Source of the DNA: Escherichia phage vB-Eco-KMB23
Strand: one strand, 5' to 3'
Sequence record: OR525702.1
DNA: 64,000 bases
Position 1 is the first letter of the stretch. Every line of letters begins with the position of its first letter. The notes under the pieces are model-generated. The model ran no database searches, was not told the origin of the DNA, and was given only the letters and a program-made list of their open reading frames with translations. Position numbers and translations under genes: made by a program. Shown here one piece after another: positions 1 through 42,511 of the stretch.

Positions 1-1479
1 TACAATAGAAGCAATATCACGCCAAGTAAATAAAAGAGCAATATCAATTCTTGCCTTTTCACCTTCACTAAATGAAGCATAACTAAAATCTTCACGACCA
101 CGGGATTTAATTGTCTCATTAAATTCTTCATCTAATGTAAACACATAATCCGCTTCCATTATTTTAAGATAATGGTTAATCTGCTTATTAAATAATGGAA
201 TGTACTTTTTAATAATAGCACCTTTAATACCAGAATCTTTGAGCATATCAGTCAAAATTCCTCGGTGGTATTTTTCCATTACTAAATTAGTTTTTGTCTT
301 AACAATTTTATCAAGTTCTTCTTGAAGCAGTGCTATTTCATCAGCATGGTCAATAAACTCAGAAGATGCTTTTTCTATAGCTGCTTTAACTTTTTTAGCT
401 TTATCTACCGTCGTGATTAGAGATTGCTTTTTATTGCGAATATCATTTGCCAACGACTGTTGGGTTTTAATATTATCTCGGTATTCATCAACAAGAACTT
501 TTAAATTATCACGATGTGTTGAAAGCTGTTCAAACGAATGCGTACATTCAGAAACTTTATCTTTAATTTTAGAAACAACTTTATCACCGGAACTTAATTG
601 TGACAAGCAGGTTGGACATAATCCGCCTTCGTGATACATATTAATGACTTTATTATACGAGTCAATTTTTGATTTAATTAAAACTGCTTCTTGACCGATT
701 TTATTAAATGCATCAGTCGGGTCTTCATCTAAAACAATATTAACTAATCTTTCATTAGCTTCTTCTATTTCCGATTTTAGCGTTCTAGCTTCTTTTGCCA
801 AATCATCATACATATTTTGCAGACGAGTAAGGTTGTCACCAGTTAATTTTTTCTGGCGTTCAACGTTATCATTATATATTTTAATTTGTTGGATAATACT
901 ATCTTTTTTAACATCAAGCACTTGGTTTTGTGAATTTAATTCACGTATTAGTGCTTTATTAAGCTTATCCATTTCAGCTAATGTTCCTACCTCGAGCAGG
1001 TCTTCCACAAGCTTTCTTCGCGCAGGGGTCGACAAACCCATGAAAGGGGTATACCCTGCTGTACCAAGGACAACAATCTGCTTGAAACTGGCATATGACA
1101 TTCCGATAAGCTGTTCAAATTCTGCTTGGAAATCTTTACTGCTAGCAGATTCATTAAGACGTGTACCGTTAACGGTGATTTCGAAAACGTTCGGTTTTTG
1201 TCCTCTTTTGATATAGTACTTTTTCTCATCATATTCCATCCACAGTTCAACTAAAAGTTCTTTCTTATTTGTGCTGTTTATTAATTGGCCTTTCTTTACA
1301 TCACGAAATGGCTTGCCAAAAAGCCCAAATGTGATGGCTTCTAACATAGTAGACTTACCACCGCCATTTCGGCCAGTAATAAGAGTTTTTTGAACCTTAT
1401 CTAATTGAATGTCAACTCCATTTTGACCAACTGACATTATATTTTTATATTTTACTCTATTAAGTTTAAATGATTTCAT
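1..1479 (-). CDS. 46: Recombination endonuclease subunit gp46 (SbcC/Rad50-like ATPase), partial; C-terminus lies beyond window start
   Basis: Runs off the window so absent from ORF track; manual minus-strand translation from ATG at 1477-1479 gives MKSFKLNRVKYKNIMSVGQNG...TGRNGGGKSTMLEAITFG (Walker A), matching T4 gp46 N-terminus; lies downstream of gene 47 as in T4. Confidence 0.85.
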   Translation of the reverse strand, partial: MKSFKLNRVKYKNIMSVGQNGVDIQLDKVQKTLITGRNGGGKSTMLEAITFGLFGKPFRDVKKGQLINSTNKKELLVELWMEYDEKKYYIKRGQKPNVFEITVNGTRLNESASSKDFQAEFEQLIGMSYASFKQIVVLGTAGYTPFMGLSTPARRKLVEDLLEVGTLAEMDKLNKALIRELNSQNQVLDVKKDSIIQQIKIYNDNVERQKKLTGDNLTRLQNMYDDLAKEARTLKSEIEEANERLVNIVLDEDPTDAFNKIGQEAVLIKSKIDSYNKVINMYHEGGLCPTCLSQLSSGDKVVSKIKDKVSECTHSFEQLSTHRDNLKVLVDEYRDNIKTQQSLANDIRNKKQSLITTVDKAKKVKAAIEKASSEFIDHADEIALLQEELDKIVKTKTNLVMEKYHRGILTDMLKDSGIKGAIIKKYIPLFNKQINHYLKIMEADYVFTLDEEFNETIKSRGREDFSYASFSEGEKARIDIALLFTWRDIASIV

Positions 1480-1494
1480 TTTGTATCCAATTGT

Positions 1495-2349
1495 TCACAA
1501 TGAAGAAAATTCTTTAACTAAAGCCTGTAATGAAGCCTCTATTGGATATCCATTCTTAACTAACATTTTCCTAAACATCACATGTTTAGGACGATTATAT
1601 GATATCCACAATTCATACAATTTATCTTTATTATCCCAATGATAGCCTTTTCGTCGAGATGCTATATGAGCTTTTCTAATCTCCGGATTTTTCCAACTAG
1701 CAGCTACTGAATTTGATATAGCTATTTTATATTCAGGTTTTGATAAAGCAGCACGAACAGCCTTTTGGTGTTTAATTTTATTTTCTTCGTTATTAAACCA
1801 TTCCCTTGAAGCCATTGAAATTTTTTGTTTTGTTTTAAAATTATTTAATCTTTCTTTGTTATCTTTCCTATTTTTTGCTACTGAAAAATATTTTAATGCC
1901 CTTTCTCTAGCAGCATTTCTATTTTGCGGATTTGAATAATACTGTTGAAGCCTTTTTGATATTGTGTCACTTACATCTTGTTTTATAAAACTATATTCAG
2001 CAGCTATTAAATCAACTTCGGCTAAAGATAAATTTTTATATGTTTTTCCTGACATCATTCTATTTAAAGCATTTAGCATTTTTCCATTTTTACCTTTTGC
2101 TAATAAGAAATGTGCTTTAAAATGATTAAAATGACTTAAATTAACTAAATTCCATGTAGATTTTAAATATTCAGGAAATATTGATTTAGGAAGCACGTGG
2201 TGTGCTTCCGTTTTACCTGGAGTTTTAACAGTTGAATTCATAGAAATAAAATTAATGTAAGACTTGGCGTCTTCTTCACTCAACGCTAATTTTTCAACTA
2301 ATTCCTTTATTAAAAATTCATCATTAATGTCAAGTTTAAAATTCTTCAC
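1495..2349 (-). CDS. HNH-family homing endonuclease (free-standing, mob-like), 284 aa, GTG start
   Basis: HNH-like motif AHHVLPKSIFPE...NLVNLSHFNHFKAHF; C-terminal repeated basic WxNPE(I)RKA-type motifs typical of endonuclease DNA-binding modules; sits between genes 47 and 46. Confidence 0.7.
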   Translation of the reverse strand: MKNFKLDINDEFLIKELVEKLALSEEDAKSYINFISMNSTVKTPGKTEAHHVLPKSIFPEYLKSTWNLVNLSHFNHFKAHFLLAKGKNGKMLNALNRMMSGKTYKNLSLAEVDLIAAEYSFIKQDVSDTISKRLQQYYSNPQNRNAARERALKYFSVAKNRKDNKERLNNFKTKQKISMASREWFNNEENKIKHQKAVRAALSKPEYKIAISNSVAASWKNPEIRKAHIASRRKGYHWDNKDKLYELWISYNRPKHVMFRKMLVKNGYPIEASLQALVKEFSSL

Positions 2350-2536
2350 AAAAGATTCCTTTTAATGTATCTTTTAGACCATTCTATCATATCATCATAA
2401 TCTAAAAAGTATTCATCAAATTCAGCCATGCAAACAACACCTTGTGCTGCTTTTGATGTGATATAAATTATTCCAACATATCTAGAATCTTCTTCGGTGT
2501 AATCAATATTTGCTATGAATTCATCATTAATGTCAA
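2315..2536. repeat. Direct repeat pair (19-bp perfect core TTGACATTAATGATGAATT on minus strand) at 2315-2333 and 2518-2536
   Basis: Both copies encode (F/L)DINDEF at the starts of two adjacent ORFs, the HNH endonuclease and the upstream small ORF. Confidence 0.75.
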
Positions 2537-2609
2537 ATGTCGAAAACTTCACAGTATGCATCCTTAATACAAGATACAGCCATATCTCGTAATGATTTAG
2601 GTGTGTCAT
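2346..2609 (-). CDS. Hypothetical small protein (probable true start near 2561, MHTVKFSTFDINDEF)
   Basis: ORF track; overlaps neighbouring ORF in another frame so the N-terminal extension is doubtful. Confidence 0.45.
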   Translation of the reverse strand: MTHLNHYEIWLYLVLRMHTVKFSTFDINDEFIANIDYTEEDSRYVGIIYITSKAAQGVVCMAEFDEYFLDYDDMIEWSKRYIKRNLL

Positions 2610-2796
2610 TATCTAAAATGTTGAAGTTAAAAGATACAGCCCAGTCAGTGCAGACTGTAACCTTTTTAATACAATTATCTTCAACCTCTAGTGGTTCAAA
2701 CCAATATTCAATAATTTCTTTGTGCCCAATATCATCTTTTACTTCGCATTCAAAATGCTGACTCATCATAACATTTTTAAATTCATCAAAAGTCAT
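2533..2796 (-). CDS. Hypothetical protein, 87 aa
   Basis: ORF track; start overlaps gene 47 stop by 4 nt (typical phage coupling). Confidence 0.5.
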   Translation of the reverse strand: MTFDEFKNVMMSQHFECEVKDDIGHKEIIEYWFEPLEVEDNCIKKVTVCTDWAVSFNFNILDNDTPKSLRDMAVSCIKDAYCEVFDI

Positions 2797-3812
2797 TGTG
2801 TTGCCTCTACATATAACTGATTTGCGTATTGAATAAGTGCTTCGCGATCAGAATCAGTGATGTCTGGAATTGCATTAATGTATTCTTCCATCAATGTCTG
2901 AAGAGATTGAACTTCAACCTCTTCGCTATCATCTGACTCGACAGAGTTATCAATCTTTGACACAACTCGTAATGAATGCACAACTTTTTCTAGTTCAGAT
3001 TCGAACTTCGTCAGATTTTTGTCTACCTCAGTTACTATAACACGTACTGATAGATTTGTAAAATCTTTATAGTCAATTTTTCCCTTAAATGGATATTGAA
3101 TTCGACGATGCCAGGTAGTGTTGTTTGGAATAAATTCCATTCGTTCTGTTTCTGTATCAAACATCCAGAACCCACGAGGGTCATTCTCGTCACCTGCAGT
3201 TAGTGTCCATGGTGTCCCAATATATCTGACGTTTGCAGCCTCAGAGATAGTATGGAAGTGACCAGACCACACTTCTTTATAAGTCTTAAGGAAATCAGGT
3301 TCAAGACCATGAGATTTCATTCCTTTATAAAAATAAAATCCGTTCAGTTCCCAGTGACCAACGCAAAAAGAAGCAGATGAAGTTTTGATGTGCTCAAGAA
3401 TTTCACCAGTATTTTCTTCGCACATCCAAGGAATCAAATCAATCAAACACCCGTCAAAATCTACTGTAGTAGGCTTATCATATACTTTAACATTAGAATA
3501 TTTAGCCAAAAGCTCAGTAGAGGCATTTGGATGCATTACATTTTTGTAGTGGAGATCGTGATTTCCTACAATAGTATGTAATGTGATTCCAGCGTCATCA
3601 AGCATTTGAACTATTTCACGGGCAAACTCCATAGTTTTATGTGTGATTGCTTTTCGCACATCAAAAATATCACCATATTGAATCCATACAGTAATTCCAT
3701 TTTTCTTAGAATATTCTATCGCTTGCTTAATTCCATCAATTTGAATACCGCGAATCCACTCATCATCAGCTTTAACGCCTAAATGCCAATCACCTAAATT
3801 TAAAATTTTCAT
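2793..3812 (-). CDS. 47: Recombination endonuclease subunit gp47 (Mre11-like nuclease)
   Basis: 339 aa as in T4 gp47; phosphoesterase motifs LGDWHLG, GDIFD, GNHD, GHWE, GHFH. Confidence 0.9.
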   Translation of the reverse strand: MKILNLGDWHLGVKADDEWIRGIQIDGIKQAIEYSKKNGITVWIQYGDIFDVRKAITHKTMEFAREIVQMLDDAGITLHTIVGNHDLHYKNVMHPNASTELLAKYSNVKVYDKPTTVDFDGCLIDLIPWMCEENTGEILEHIKTSSASFCVGHWELNGFYFYKGMKSHGLEPDFLKTYKEVWSGHFHTISEAANVRYIGTPWTLTAGDENDPRGFWMFDTETERMEFIPNNTTWHRRIQYPFKGKIDYKDFTNLSVRVIVTEVDKNLTKFESELEKVVHSLRVVSKIDNSVESDDSEEVEVQSLQTLMEEYINAIPDITDSDREALIQYANQLYVEATQ

Positions 3813-3973
3813 ATATCAAGAACCGTCATTGAAATGCAAAATAAAATTATTGAAATAAATCCATCTGGAGTGCTAAAGAACCCAATCCAGCACGCTCTAG
3901 TGAATAGATAAAATGCAAGAAAAAGTATCACATATCCAAGAAATATCATTATATCAAACTCCGTATAAAGCTA

Positions 3974-3991
3974 AAGGGCCGAAGCCCTTTA
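3974..3991 (-). terminator. Stem-loop (GGGCC-tetraloop-GGCCC) overlapping a-gt stop; RNA stability or partial terminator
   Basis: aaagggccgaagcccttt; weak U-tract on minus strand. Confidence 0.35.
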
Positions 3992-5191
3992 TTTTGTAAT
4001 AATGTCAAACTGTTCTTTAAAGCAGAAGCTTGAATCTTGATGTTGATACAAAAATTCATACGCTTTTTCTCGCTCACGGTCATAAAGAGCTCGGTCAGAT
4101 GACAGTTCTTTAATACGTTCAAATGTTGATTCCATATCATTTTCATCAAACCAAATGATACCGCTATCATGCGAGGTCAAAGGAGTATTATCAACACGGA
4201 ATTTTAAATTTTCGCCAGTAGATTTCCAAAATACCGGAATTGTTCCACATGCACCAAGCTCGAGGTGAGTATATTCTAAAGAGCGCTGTAGATATTTTTT
4301 ATCCAACTTACTCAGCTGATAACCAAATCCGGATTTACTCATGCGTTCAAGCATTTCGCTATTTACATAACGGTCAAGAATTTGCGTTGGCAAATTAGGA
4401 GCAATTTTAATTTGGTCTACTTGATGAAGACGATAATACTCGTATGGAATTCCTTTTTCTTTAATAGGAATGAACGCTGGAGAACGTTCCAGACCTTCCA
4501 TAATAGTACTTAGTCCTGCAGGTTTAAGATGTTTTTCATGAAAATCAAACATCTGATAAAAACCTTTCCATGTAGTCGTACGACCAATCCAACGGTTGAT
4601 ATTCATGTTAATTTCAGAAACATCTTTCCAGTAGGTTGACCGAACCTTCGCAATATCCATAGGAGGCTGAAAGTTATATACTGTCGGTGCTTCTTCAATA
4701 TCATCAAACAGAGAAACAGTTTCTGGATACCATTCTTTCATCAGAACTTTATTAAAATCACCATTATCAGAATGGCTAAAAATAACATCAGCTCGACGAA
4801 CAGTTTCTTCTAATCCCAAATTTCGGCGCAAAGAAAGAGAAGAATGGTCATGTTGATAAACTACAACACGAACAGAAGGTTTAATGTTATCAATAATTTT
4901 TTTATAGTTATTAATAGTGTCTTCTTCAACCGAAGTAGCAGGAACTGAATTGATAATTAGAATATCACAATCATTTACCAGCTTAAGTGTTTTATCATAT
5001 TCTTTTGCCAATAAAACCGGAATTGAAAATGATTTATAATCATGCGCGCAATTACGAGTAAATGATTTATCTTTAGCATAAACCAAAGTTACTTCATGAC
5101 CATTCTTAATAAACCAATCACGTTGCTCAAGAGAAAATTTAGTTACACCACAACCTTCAAGACCTCGAGCCATAAAAATACATACTTTCAT
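3989..5191 (-). CDS. a-gt: DNA alpha-glucosyltransferase
   Basis: 400 aa; N-terminus MKVCIFMARGLEGCGVTKFSLEQRDWFIKNGHEVTLVYAKDKSF matches T4 alpha-glucosyltransferase as I recall it. Confidence 0.9.
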   Translation of the reverse strand: MKVCIFMARGLEGCGVTKFSLEQRDWFIKNGHEVTLVYAKDKSFTRNCAHDYKSFSIPVLLAKEYDKTLKLVNDCDILIINSVPATSVEEDTINNYKKIIDNIKPSVRVVVYQHDHSSLSLRRNLGLEETVRRADVIFSHSDNGDFNKVLMKEWYPETVSLFDDIEEAPTVYNFQPPMDIAKVRSTYWKDVSEINMNINRWIGRTTTWKGFYQMFDFHEKHLKPAGLSTIMEGLERSPAFIPIKEKGIPYEYYRLHQVDQIKIAPNLPTQILDRYVNSEMLERMSKSGFGYQLSKLDKKYLQRSLEYTHLELGACGTIPVFWKSTGENLKFRVDNTPLTSHDSGIIWFDENDMESTFERIKELSSDRALYDREREKAYEFLYQHQDSSFCFKEQFDIITK

Positions 5192-5241
5192 TTAATATCC
5201 TCTTTGTTTTGGTTTATTTTACCAAAAATTTATAAAGCAAT

Positions 5242-5261
5242 ATAGGAGCCGAAGCTCCTAT
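5242..5261 (-). terminator. Stem-loop, candidate terminator
   Basis: ataggagccgaagctcctat, tetraloop hairpin with moderately T-rich tail on minus strand. Confidence 0.45.
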
Positions 5262-5434
5262 CCACATAATACGCCATACAGAGGCTCGTTAGAACTTTTA
5301 AATTTTATGCGCTTATATTTTATAGTTCCTTCTGCTTTAGCTTTATCATGAGACGCTTTAAAGAGTCTCATCATTTCCTCTTTAGAGGAACGAATTTTAT
5401 TATAATCTATTTCAGAAGTCTGGGTGTTCATCTT

Positions 5435-5641
5435 TCATAACTGCCACCATTTTTTGACTTGATAAGAATCAACCCACACTTTCATATTAGGGTCTGCTCT
5501 TACAATAGGAGGATTAACTTCTTTAATTGAACTATCATGGTATTCTTTTTCAGAAATTTTCACACAAAGATGACCATTCAAAGATTCAGTAAATCCTGCA
5601 TTAATTTTAAGACGCTTGAATTTTACGTGTGTAAGCATCAA
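5435..5641 (-). CDS. Hypothetical small protein
   Basis: ORF track only; overlaps next ORF. Confidence 0.4.
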   Translation of the reverse strand: MMLTHVKFKRLKINAGFTESLNGHLCVKISEKEYHDSSIKEVNPPIVRADPNMKVWVDSYQVKKWWQL

Positions 5642-5924
5642 TCATATCCTCAATCTGCGATCTAGTAGTCTTCCAAAGAATACTGATAAGTTCATCGTTA
5701 TATGGCTGTTTTAGAATATCCCGACTTTTCTTGATAGCATATTCGTATTGAGCAAAATTATTATTTTCAGCTGCAATCTGAGCGTGCTTATAAAGACGAT
5801 TCAGTTCGCGTTTGTTTTTAGACAATAACTTATTTGCTTTTCTTTCTGCTTCAAGACGGTTCTTTTCTTCAATAGAAGAAATAAGCTTTTCCACTTCATC
5901 ATTAATTTCGGGTTTATCAGTCAT
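5607..5924 (-). CDS. Hypothetical protein, 105 aa, charged/helical
   Basis: ORF track; compact fit between neighbours. Confidence 0.5.
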   Translation of the reverse strand: MTDKPEINDEVEKLISSIEEKNRLEAERKANKLLSKNKRELNRLYKHAQIAAENNNFAQYEYAIKKSRDILKQPYNDELISILWKTTRSQIEDMIDAYTRKIQAS

Positions 5925-5925
5925 A

Positions 5926-6144
5926 TTATTTCTCTAATATAAAATAAAAATCATCATCTGTTAAATGATACCGATAGTTTAATTCTACACCATTAGATTT
6001 AAAAGCGGTATCATACGGATTTTCTGGATCAATATCAATGTCAAGAGCTAAAACTTCCCTGAGATACATTTTAAGTAAATAGGGAATAGCTTCAACTTCA
6101 GGTATTTCTTCCAAGAATCCGGAGAGGTTAATCGTTAGCCTCAT
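5926..6144 (-). CDS. Hypothetical protein, 72 aa
   Basis: ORF track; directly downstream of gene 55. Confidence 0.5.
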
Positions 6145-6685
6145 ATAAAAAATCCAAACTAGGAGAATCGTCTACAACACTTTTCTTTTCAGCCCCCGGT
6201 GTTCTATAGGTTGATTCTTCGTAATGCGTCATTTTATCGTAGATGTCTTGAATAAAAGTTTCATCTACTAACGCAACCATATCGTCGTCACGACTGTCAT
6301 AGACATTGTGAACGAAGTAACTATATTTCTTTGCAACTTCCTTACGTTCTTTTTTAATACGCTGGACGAATGCATTAAAACAAGCTTGAGTTATATATGC
6401 ATGTGGGTTTTTATATTTCGTTTCATCAAAATTATGAAGCCCCTTAATAGAAGCTTCTATACCATCTGCAATCATTTCTTGTTTCCAAGACTGGGTGTAT
6501 CCTGAAAAGTTGAAACGTTTAGATAAGCCTTCTGCAATAAGCATAATGGCTAATCCGATAGTATCATTCTGACGAACTACTTTATTTGGGTCTTTATTAT
6601 TTGCTAATTCTGTTTTCCAATCAATAATAGCTTGTAAAAGCTCTTTATTGTTTACGTAATTATATTTAGGCTTAGTTTCTGACAT
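6128..6685 (-). CDS. 55: Late-transcription sigma factor gp55
   Basis: From [24 protein letters not shown] the product is 185 aa, matching T4 gp55; the ORF track adds a 2-codon upstream extension. Confidence 0.9.
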
Positions 6686-8460: not shown

Positions 8461-8490
8461 TAATACCACGGTTTGAACTTGTTGTAAACA
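8461..8490 (-). promoter_or_regulatory. T4-type early promoter (sigma70-like)
   Basis: Minus strand: GTTTAC -35, 18-nt spacer, TATTAT -10, with upstream AT-rich element ttcacaaagtt. Confidence 0.5.
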
Positions 8491-19205: not shown

Positions 19206-19233
19206 TTTCTGTTCCTCCGTAGTTGATAGTTGT

Positions 19234-42474: not shown

Positions 42475-42511
42475 TTCCATTCAATTCCATTCAATTCCAT
42501 TCAATTCCATT
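42475..42511. repeat. Tandem repeat, 10-bp unit TTCCATTCAA x3 plus partial copy
   Basis: ttccattcaattccattcaattccattcaattccatt read directly; lies in the gene 2 / gene 3 intergenic region. Confidence 0.9.

Follow-up and report, generated by a model that had tools for sequence, protein, structure and literature searches.

The locus described here raises the question of how a homing-endonuclease gene can sit inside an essential phage gene, and from where it obtained its own start of translation. We analysed a stretch of 64 kilobases (kb) of Escherichia phage vB-Eco-KMB23 (OR525702.1), referred to as the window, to which all coordinates apply. The genes of the endonuclease locus are all on the minus strand, as is every gene in 1-5200, and are transcribed in the order 47, 46.2, 46.1, endonuclease open reading frame (ORF), 46. 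An earlier reading made from the letters alone (the sequence-only reading) had placed a 284-amino acid (aa) HNH endonuclease ORF with a GTG start between genes 47 and 46. The ORF and its start were confirmed (minus strand, 1495-2349), as was its location upstream of gene 46; its exact place is between 46.1 and 46, with 46.2 and 46.1 separating it from gene 47. Taken together, the analysis makes it likely that in this T2/T6-like phage a Mob-type HNH gene has been joined in frame to the start of gene 46, retains the relic of a fusion to 46.1 and spreads by intronless homing. This is an ordinary mobile element with an instructive junction and not a new kind of element.

The resident and the replacement start of gene 46

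The features that make up the two ends of the endonuclease gene are the following.

1495-2349, minus strand: predicted Mob-type HNH homing-endonuclease ORF, 284 codons, GTG start (ORF list; PHROG 655; homology to T4 MobB and MobD; RefSeq relatives annotated 'homing endonuclease')
2332-2363, minus strand: resident gene 46 translation-initiation region, now serving the endonuclease ORF (same as the T4 and RB3 gene 46 starts)
1462-2331, minus strand: insert relative to T4, 870 nucleotides (nt) (alignment with T4)
1480-1494, minus strand: spacer ACAATTGGATACAAA, 15 nt, from the endonuclease stop to the new gene 46 ATG (GGA 6 nt 5' of the ATG)
1462-1479, minus strand: replacement gene 46 start, ATG AAA TCA TTT AAA CTT (MKSFKL), supplied by the insert
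1-1479, minus strand: gene 46, SbcC/Rad50-like subunit, running off the window start (AAA_23 and SMC_N matches; T4 alignment)

In T4, which has no such ORF, gene 46 begins AAAAGGAATCTTTTGTGAAGAATTTTAAACTT, directly followed by AATAGAG, and the alignment shows its GTG overlapping the 46.1 stop. The window matches T4 exactly through AAACTT and then runs GACATTAATGATGAATT... into the endonuclease ORF, whose GTG overlaps the 46.1 stop as GTGA. The junction falls after GTGAAGAATTTTAAACTT, and the left junction is alike in RB3, T2, T6 and PP01. The captured initiation region consists of AAAAGGAATCTTTT (Shine-Dalgarno GGA 7 nt upstream) and GTG AAG AAT TTT AAA CTT (MKNFKL), and the gene 46-type start that now heads the ORF reads GTGAAGAAT. 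From -20 to +18 around the endonuclease GTG, 38 of 38 nt are identical to the T4 gene 46 start, whereas few positions outside TGTGAAG match the 46.1 start. A 64-nt junction query found the same start in 517 phage records, leading into the endonuclease in 71 of them and into gene 46 in the other 446, which cease to match at nt 31-32, where gene 46 proper begins. Since the ribosome-binding site (RBS), the GTG and codons 1-6 are identical to those of T4 gene 46, it is the resident gene 46 start, left in place, that precedes the ORF, and not a copy from 46.1. At the level of sequence, this comparison shows that no separate start belongs to the endonuclease ORF, which extends the reading frame opened by the resident start of gene 46.

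The sequence-only reading had taken the first 12 codons as near-identical to the start of the upstream ORF, 46.1, and the whole as a duplicated 46.1 start, the footprint of an insertion, from which a copied 46.1 initiation region would be used. A 45-nt ungapped match of 78% identity, comprising GTGAAG and an exact 19-nt repeat in register with the annotated 46.1 GTG, speaks for this explanation, and the likeness does hold for codons 7-12 and for GTG AAG. For codons 1-6 and the RBS it is contradicted by the 38 nt shared with the T4 gene 46 start and by the occurrence of that start in its original place in 446 endonuclease-free genomes, and the copies of the 19-mer do not flank the insert. We therefore regard a wholesale duplication of the 46.1 start as very unlikely. 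That the initiation region is borrowed stands; the lender is the downstream gene 46, whose start stayed where it was.

Alignment with T4, which the sequence-only reading had proposed as a check, defined the insertion boundaries (1462-2331) and revealed that the flanks are two versions of the gene 46 start sharing TTTAAACTT. The 870-nt insert is a multiple of three and lies in frame with gene 46 after its codon 6. Its two boundaries are marked by copies of a 9-nt direct repeat, TTTAAACTT (2332-2340 and 1462-1470), along which they slide by 9 nt. Its far end reads ...TGA ACAATTGGATACAAA ATG AAA TCA TTT AAA CTT and continues with AATAGAG; the TGA (1495-1497) is the endonuclease stop, followed by 15 nt and the gene 46 ATG (1479). 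The insert thus carries a stop, a GGA-bearing stretch of 15 nt and a second six-codon start, and therefore the essential gene 46 is restarted intact, its product (gp46) being whole apart from N3S. This replacement start had been missed in the sequence-only reading. It differs from the resident start at 5 of 18 nt (13 of 18 identical), both contain TTTAAACTT, and ATGAAATCATTTAAA also begins gene 46 in Mosigvirus SHSML-52-1. By this comparison, the flanking copies of TTTAAACTT are part of two diverged gene 46 starts and do not represent a target-site duplication.

Since the endonuclease ORF uses the resident gene 46 start, it would be translated within the 47-46.2-46.1 message by coupling to 46.1, as gene 46 is in T4. 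For other T4 endonucleases, control by an RNA hairpin plus a late promoter has been described (PMC2988022). A scan for sigma-70-type promoters gave 13 sites against 13.5 expected, with an excess of neither promoters nor terminators, and no late promoter TATAAATA was found within 1-25,000. RNA folds around three starts were no more stable than those of shuffled sequences (z -0.9 to +0.9 around both repeat-bearing starts). These null results fit expression from the operon message rather than hairpin-plus-late-promoter control. TTGACA within the 19-nt repeat had been considered as a -35 box and was dropped, the promoter scan being at the expected level.

The endonuclease, its distribution and its predicted target

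The assignment as an HNH endonuclease, made in the sequence-only reading, was upheld by matches to PHROG 655 and PHROG 12434, by homology to T4 MobB and MobD and by conserved residues. The match to PHROG 655 ('homing endonuclease') had an E-value of 7.8e-45; BLASTP to T4 MobB gave 1e-8 (32% identity over 98 aa) and tblastn to T4 MobD 2e-11 to 3e-11. Pfam, NCBIfam and PDB searches of the endonuclease, the last by sequence and by profile, returned no HNH match. An exhaustive HMMER search recovered 975 representatives at E<1e-3, and in an alignment of 55 homologues Y31, H50, H51, P54, N67, H76 and H80 were invariant. The AlphaFold model, built from a 6-sequence alignment, has a predicted local distance difference test score (pLDDT) of ~88-90 over residues 11-90 and places these invariant residues in a strand (47-51), a second strand (68-72) and a helix (73-84), from which the following core was delimited.

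2098-2211, minus strand: predicted catalytic beta-beta-alpha core, residues 47-84 (TEAHHVLPKS...WNLVNLSHFNHFKAHFLLA) (invariant residues and AlphaFold)

NUMOD-type C-terminal modules were not detected in the window endonuclease; among the 55 homologues NUMOD3 occurs in 17 and the I-HmuI NUMOD-like domain in two, and a few match Pfam HNH models. Homology and model together place the uncharacterised protein among the Mob-type HNH homing endonucleases, a kind of element already known. The gene is annotated as an endonuclease in many records, and the single 'other HNH' entries listed for each of T2, T6 and RB51 in a 2010 review table (PMC2993671) probably refer to it. A perfect inverted repeat of 8 base pairs (GGAAGCAC ACCAC GTGCTTCC) lies at 2189-2209 inside the catalytic TEAHHVLP codons, where the terminator scan flags the opposite strand.

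Relatives of the same subfamily occupy the corresponding position in other phages. In F2 and 172859UKE1, two Escherichia phages, a 44%-identical homologue takes the place of 46.1, whose first seven codons (MTKTDYE; ATGACGAAGACTGAYTATGAAA) form its start, and in Salmonella phage SEA1 a homologue replaces the 46.1 homologue outright. These relatives bear on the 15-nt spacer. One cluster member of 290 aa, with one T fewer in a T-run (window ~1498-1510), reads through the spacer in the +1 frame (…EFLHCEQLDTK and stop) and ends at a TGA overlapping the gene 46 ATG; its C-terminal length resembles that of the F2 and SEA1 homologues. Because of this read-through and this length, the spacer is probably former coding sequence of the endonuclease C-terminus, cut off by a 1-nt change in the T-run, and the usual form of 284 aa may have arisen by truncation at the C-terminus. 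An origin of the spacer as a relic of the 46.1 3' end was rejected, as the 290-aa member reads through it.

That the gene is an inserted one, as the sequence-only reading had proposed, is borne out by its presence in 71 and absence from 446 of 517 otherwise collinear T-even-type genomes. The junction is identical in the carriers, which are ~99% identical to one another throughout. In T2 the endonuclease gene is frameshifted into ORFs of 204 and 85 aa (T2 locus 901-1753), and in RB51 and RB68 it is frameshifted and truncated to 208 aa; these copies are decaying.

Carriers also share the stretch of gene 46 that follows the insertion point.

1416-1479, minus strand: gene 46 patch, nt 1-64 of the gene, always 'T4 type' in carriers (carrier/non-carrier pairs, three genera)

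Three independent pairs of a carrier and a non-carrier were compared (the window with RB3, SEA1 with UTK0003, and F2/172859UKE1 with SHSML-52-1). In all three, gene 46 differs densely only over nt 1-64, where the clustered differences end at nt 62-64, and the 115 nt from nt 75 to nt 190 are 98-99% identical. Gene 46 thus occurs as two sharply bounded haplotypes with their boundary at the endonuclease insertion point. The changes shared by carriers are at nt 34, 51, 54-57 and 61-62; in the encoded protein, Y-Q-N...V-G-G of non-carriers corresponds to Y-K/S-N...V-G-Q of carriers. One patch type was found in 70 of 70 full-length carriers, none of which had the non-carrier patch, and the RB3-type patch is present in ~359 non-carriers. 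Divergence limited to the flank is what co-conversion of a cleavage-resistant flank predicts, and it points to gene 46 codons ~10-21 as the likely target; recognition and immunity are predicted to reside in the patch (nt 1-64). Spread by intronless homing, as we infer it from these patterns, would involve cleavage of endonuclease-free genomes within approximately the first 64 nt of gene 46, and repair would copy in the endonuclease gene together with the cleavage-resistant flank.

A deviating sequence of the same region was observed in Enterobacteria phage Ac3 (OK040907.1; locus ~700-2251, corresponding to window ~800-2349), in which synonymous recoding extends over the endonuclease ORF and at least the first 680 nt of gene 46. 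Most of the 432 differences affect third codon positions and are T>C or A>G/C, and the G+C content is 45% versus 28%; the recoding opens exactly at the start codon, which has become GTT, and a frameshift is present. The segment resembles a synthetic stretch with optimised codons, or else a contaminant of the assembly, and not natural divergence.

Origin of the 19-nt direct repeat

The repeat links the endonuclease ORF to 46.1, and its copies and the genes upstream of the ORF are given below.

2315-2333, minus strand: repeat copy B, endonuclease codons 7-12 (DINDEF), 17 nt of it being the first bases of the insert (without counterpart in endonuclease-free genomes)
2518-2536, minus strand: repeat copy A, gene 46.1 codons 7-12 (motif kept in distant 46.1 homologues)
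2346-2552, minus strand: gene 46.1 (DUF5487), GTG start at 2552 (Pfam DUF5487 2.1e-48; T4 and PP01 annotation, 207 nt)
2533-2796, minus strand: gene 46.2, T4_Y03C family (Pfam PF25721 2.6e-43; T4 annotation)
2793-3812, minus strand: gene 47, SbcD-like nuclease subunit, first of the co-oriented block (Metallophos match; T4 annotation)

The exact direct repeat of 19 nt (TTGACATTAATGATGAATT), 203 nt from start to start, was confirmed and is the longest close direct repeat within the whole window. The region is AT-rich (G+C content of the endonuclease ORF 28%) and short repeats abound in it, which could favour a chance similarity. Second-order Markov simulations, however, produced a close (at most 300 nt) exact repeat of at least 19 nt in 0 of 200 sequences of 64 kb and an exact repeat of at least 17 nt in 1 of 3000 sequences of 1.7 kb, and both copies share frame and codon register. 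The repeat is real and far beyond chance; coincidence is statistically rejected and has a negligible probability in our view. The remaining long exact repeats of the window are scattered and look intergenic: repeats of 17-31 nt at 8483, 20696, 35742, 40070 and 40401, and further ones at 19219/20660/35704, 3973/7612 and 42475-42511. The dispersed types include a TGTAAACA.CTTTGTGAAA-type, a shared hairpin AAAGGGCCGAAGCCCTT and a 10-nt tandem repeat TTCCATTCAA.

Copy A starts at the stop codon of 46.2 (TGA, 2533-2535), just past the overlap in which codons 1-6 of 46.1 cover the 3' end of 46.2. The sequence-only reading had let the upstream ORF begin at an ATG; the annotated 46.1 start is the GTG at 2552, and with it the N-termini of 46.1 and the endonuclease (MKFSTFDINDEF and MKNFKLDINDEF) are in exact register. 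What they share is limited to codons 7-12 (17 nt; 19 with the flanking TT) and GTG AAG. Endonuclease-free relatives carrying both copies would have argued that the repeat predates the insertion; T4, RB3 and all 446 genomes of the junction search carry the 46.1 copy only. The proposal that the repeat is a footprint of the insertion is thus right in that the repeat belongs to the insertion. It does not extend to a target-site duplication, in which identical short repeats immediately flank the inserted DNA: copy B lies at the 5' edge of the insert and copy A 186 nt outside it.

Several lines of evidence indicate that copy B is foreign to the endonuclease. In 54 homologues the invariant Tyr mostly follows the initial Met at a distance of 19-24 residues, versus 31 in the window protein, HMMER alignments typically open at query residue 13-30 paired with homologue residue 4-20, and in the AlphaFold model residues 1-10 are unstructured and the first helix begins at residue 11. 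By alignment and model, the first 10-12 residues have been grafted on and do not belong to the fold of the endonuclease. The motif F-x-I-x-D-x-[FYW] is kept in 46.1 of Gaprivervirus (MKTFEFNLDDEF), Mosigvirus, Karamvirus, Dhakavirus and Gelderlandvirus, and therefore F-D-I-N-D-E-F is native to 46.1 and the endonuclease copy is derived from it. The possibility that 'DIN' is native to the endonuclease, raised by a homologue in phage Kha5h that starts MDIN, was rejected: the end of gene 56 (its last 11 nt) dictates MDI there, and the unrelated SegF has it too.

The repeat might alternatively be kept for a function, either as a shared regulatory site in the mRNA (a translational operator or structure) or through an interaction of the DINDEF peptide, for example with gp46/gp47. 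Copy B is intact and in frame in all carriers examined, its sole change being a single synonymous C>T in T2, and both copies form codons 7-12 of ORFs whose GTG starts overlap the upstream gene. This conservation weighs little, since the carriers are so closely alike, and residues 1-10 are disordered and missing from the family. Nor did the RNA folds at the two starts or the promoter and terminator scans reveal a signal, and we consider a retained function improbable.

The 19-mer is best read as the recombination scar of an earlier fusion to the 46.1 start. In a first step, the ORF would have replaced most of 46.1 in a T4-type genome and become fused after 46.1 codon 12, in the manner of the F2 locus and of the Mosigvirus-type loci in which the 44%-identical homologue still stands in for 46.1; the hybrid junction of such an intermediate would read CGACATTTGACATTAATGATGAATTTTTAATAAAGG. 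In a second step, unequal in-register exchange between this fused start and the gene 46 start of a 46.1-bearing genome would have restored 46.1 and placed the ORF behind the gene 46 start, with six 46.1 codons remaining as the scar. Both starts consist of AAGGA, 7-8 nt and TGTGAAG, with TT at codon 6.

A serious rival holds that the ORF was joined to gene 46 codon 6 in one step and that the 17 nt encoding DINDEF were later templated from 46.1, by template switching or gene conversion during repair or replication, so that no fusion ancestor existed. T4 is known to undergo templated mutagenesis between imperfect repeats, and the two starts form such a pair in direct orientation at a distance of 203 nt; several family members start MN.D.F, a possible seed of the similarity. 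The one-step origin is also favoured by the failure to find the fusion intermediate in the phage collection, IMG/VR and metagenomes. On the other hand, it requires that the native 5' end of the endonuclease already resembled 46.1 by chance, direct fusion to a 46.1 start does occur at the F2-type locus, and the N-terminal lengths in the family suggest that the entire extension of 10-12 residues is foreign. Templating in place is therefore possible in our judgement, though doubtful.

Some observations weigh against the joint account of start capture, 46.1 fusion and homing. The intermediate, with the order 46.2, 46.1 codons 1-12 fused to the endonuclease, and 46, was absent from all three collections just named, and the two-step origin therefore stays inferential. 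Exact-pattern scans for the endonuclease 5' end in any other context gave 0 hits in IMG/VR and 0 in metagenome contigs, a chimeric query of 46.1 codons 1-12 and the endonuclease was matched only in two pieces across 511 nt, the arrangement of the window itself, and a word-indexed protein search yielded 7 homologues only, none of them at an intermediate level of identity. An N-terminus of the type MN(x)D(x)F or similar occurs in several homologues, and some of 'NDEF' could therefore have belonged to the endonuclease from the outset, a short conversion templated in place having produced the identity. Beyond TGTGAAG the in-register likeness of the two starts is weak (26 of 68 positions). Finally, T4 lacks the endonuclease gene and has the carrier-type patch, so that the patch is not strictly diagnostic of carriage; a deletion between the TTTAAACTT repeats, by which the exact T4 sequence would be restored, may have removed the gene from T4.

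Meaning of the junction and comparison with known systems

Literature searches found no description of this junction. It gives a base-by-base view of how a selfish nuclease gene settles inside an essential gene without harm, by taking the translation start of that gene and bringing a replacement. It also provides a concrete candidate target (gene 46 codons ~10-21) for an uncharacterised endonuclease of the classical phages T6 and T2, the T2 copy being decayed. The endonuclease bears on marker exclusion and on mosaicism around the recombination genes, and the insertion point is a site where T-even genomes tolerate an in-frame insertion of 870 nt, which may serve phage engineering.

A related observation was made in Escherichia virus TH22 (MT446396.1, ~1500-1760), in which the starts of 46.1 and 46 are themselves alike (ATGAAGACTTTTGAATTTAAT versus GTGAAGACTTTTAAGCTTAAG), with 11 nt exact (TGAAGACTTTT) at a distance of 203 nt. 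This hints that 46.1 may once have captured the gene 46 start and may thus be an earlier insertion of a similar type. We tentatively suggest that start capture could be serial, selfish and accessory ORFs of T-even phages entering operons by in-frame grafting onto a resident start, which is duplicated in the process; the 19-mer would then be the fossil of a hop from 46.1 to 46. Such serial capture, if true and general, would provide a rule for gene acquisition in T4-type phages without new promoters or ribosome-binding sites.

The closest known systems are the T4 genes mobE, mobB and mobD. Like the window ORF, they are free-standing genes between or within DNA-metabolism genes, with a start that overlaps the upstream stop and with presence/absence polymorphism among T-even phages, and the catalytic domain is homologous, as seen from the MobB and MobD matches. 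Five of the 12 free-standing endonuclease ORFs of T4 overlap the upstream ORF, for which translational coupling or scanning was proposed; the mobE start overlaps the nrdA stop (UAAUGA), and translational coupling was proposed here as well (PMC2988022). The window ORF differs from the T4 Mob genes in being fused in frame to six codons of the interrupted gene and six of its neighbour, and in that its insert brings a spare start for the interrupted gene. Unlike at mobE and I-TevI, neither an RNA hairpin nor a late promoter was detected at the window ORF. In the window itself, 5192-6144 contains only short ORFs (at most 105 aa) where T4 has mobB right beyond a-gt (compared locus 5886-6680), and this phage appears to be without mobB while carrying the gene 46 endonuclease.

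The homologues of F2, 172859UKE1 and SEA1 share with the window protein the subfamily, the position immediately 5' of gene 46 and the patch at nt 1-64 of gene 46. In those phages the endonuclease gene stands in place of 46.1 and runs at its 3' end into the start of gene 46, whereas in the window 46.1 is intact, the ORF stands on the gene 46 start and the 46.1 relic comprises six codons only. A resident start signal is likewise used in the slot between genes 56 and soc, which in different phages holds T4 SegF (GIY-YIG) and an unannotated Mob-like HNH gene of Kha5h. Both start at an ATG inside the last 11 nt of gene 56 (ATGGATATTAA, giving MDI...; compared loci, T4 1271-1281 and Kha5h 2001-2011). 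The codons captured at that slot come from the 3' end of the upstream gene in another frame, whereas those in the window are the true start of a downstream essential gene, which had to be duplicated. Split genes offer a further parallel: in Aeromonas phage Aeh1 nrdA is split by mobE, and in T4 genes 60 and 39 are separated by mobA. As in the window, the coding region of an essential gene of DNA metabolism harbours an HNH gene, is stopped and restarted, and keeps its function. The split genes yield two functional polypeptides, whereas in the window the split falls after codon 6, six codons are duplicated and gp46 remains whole apart from N3S.

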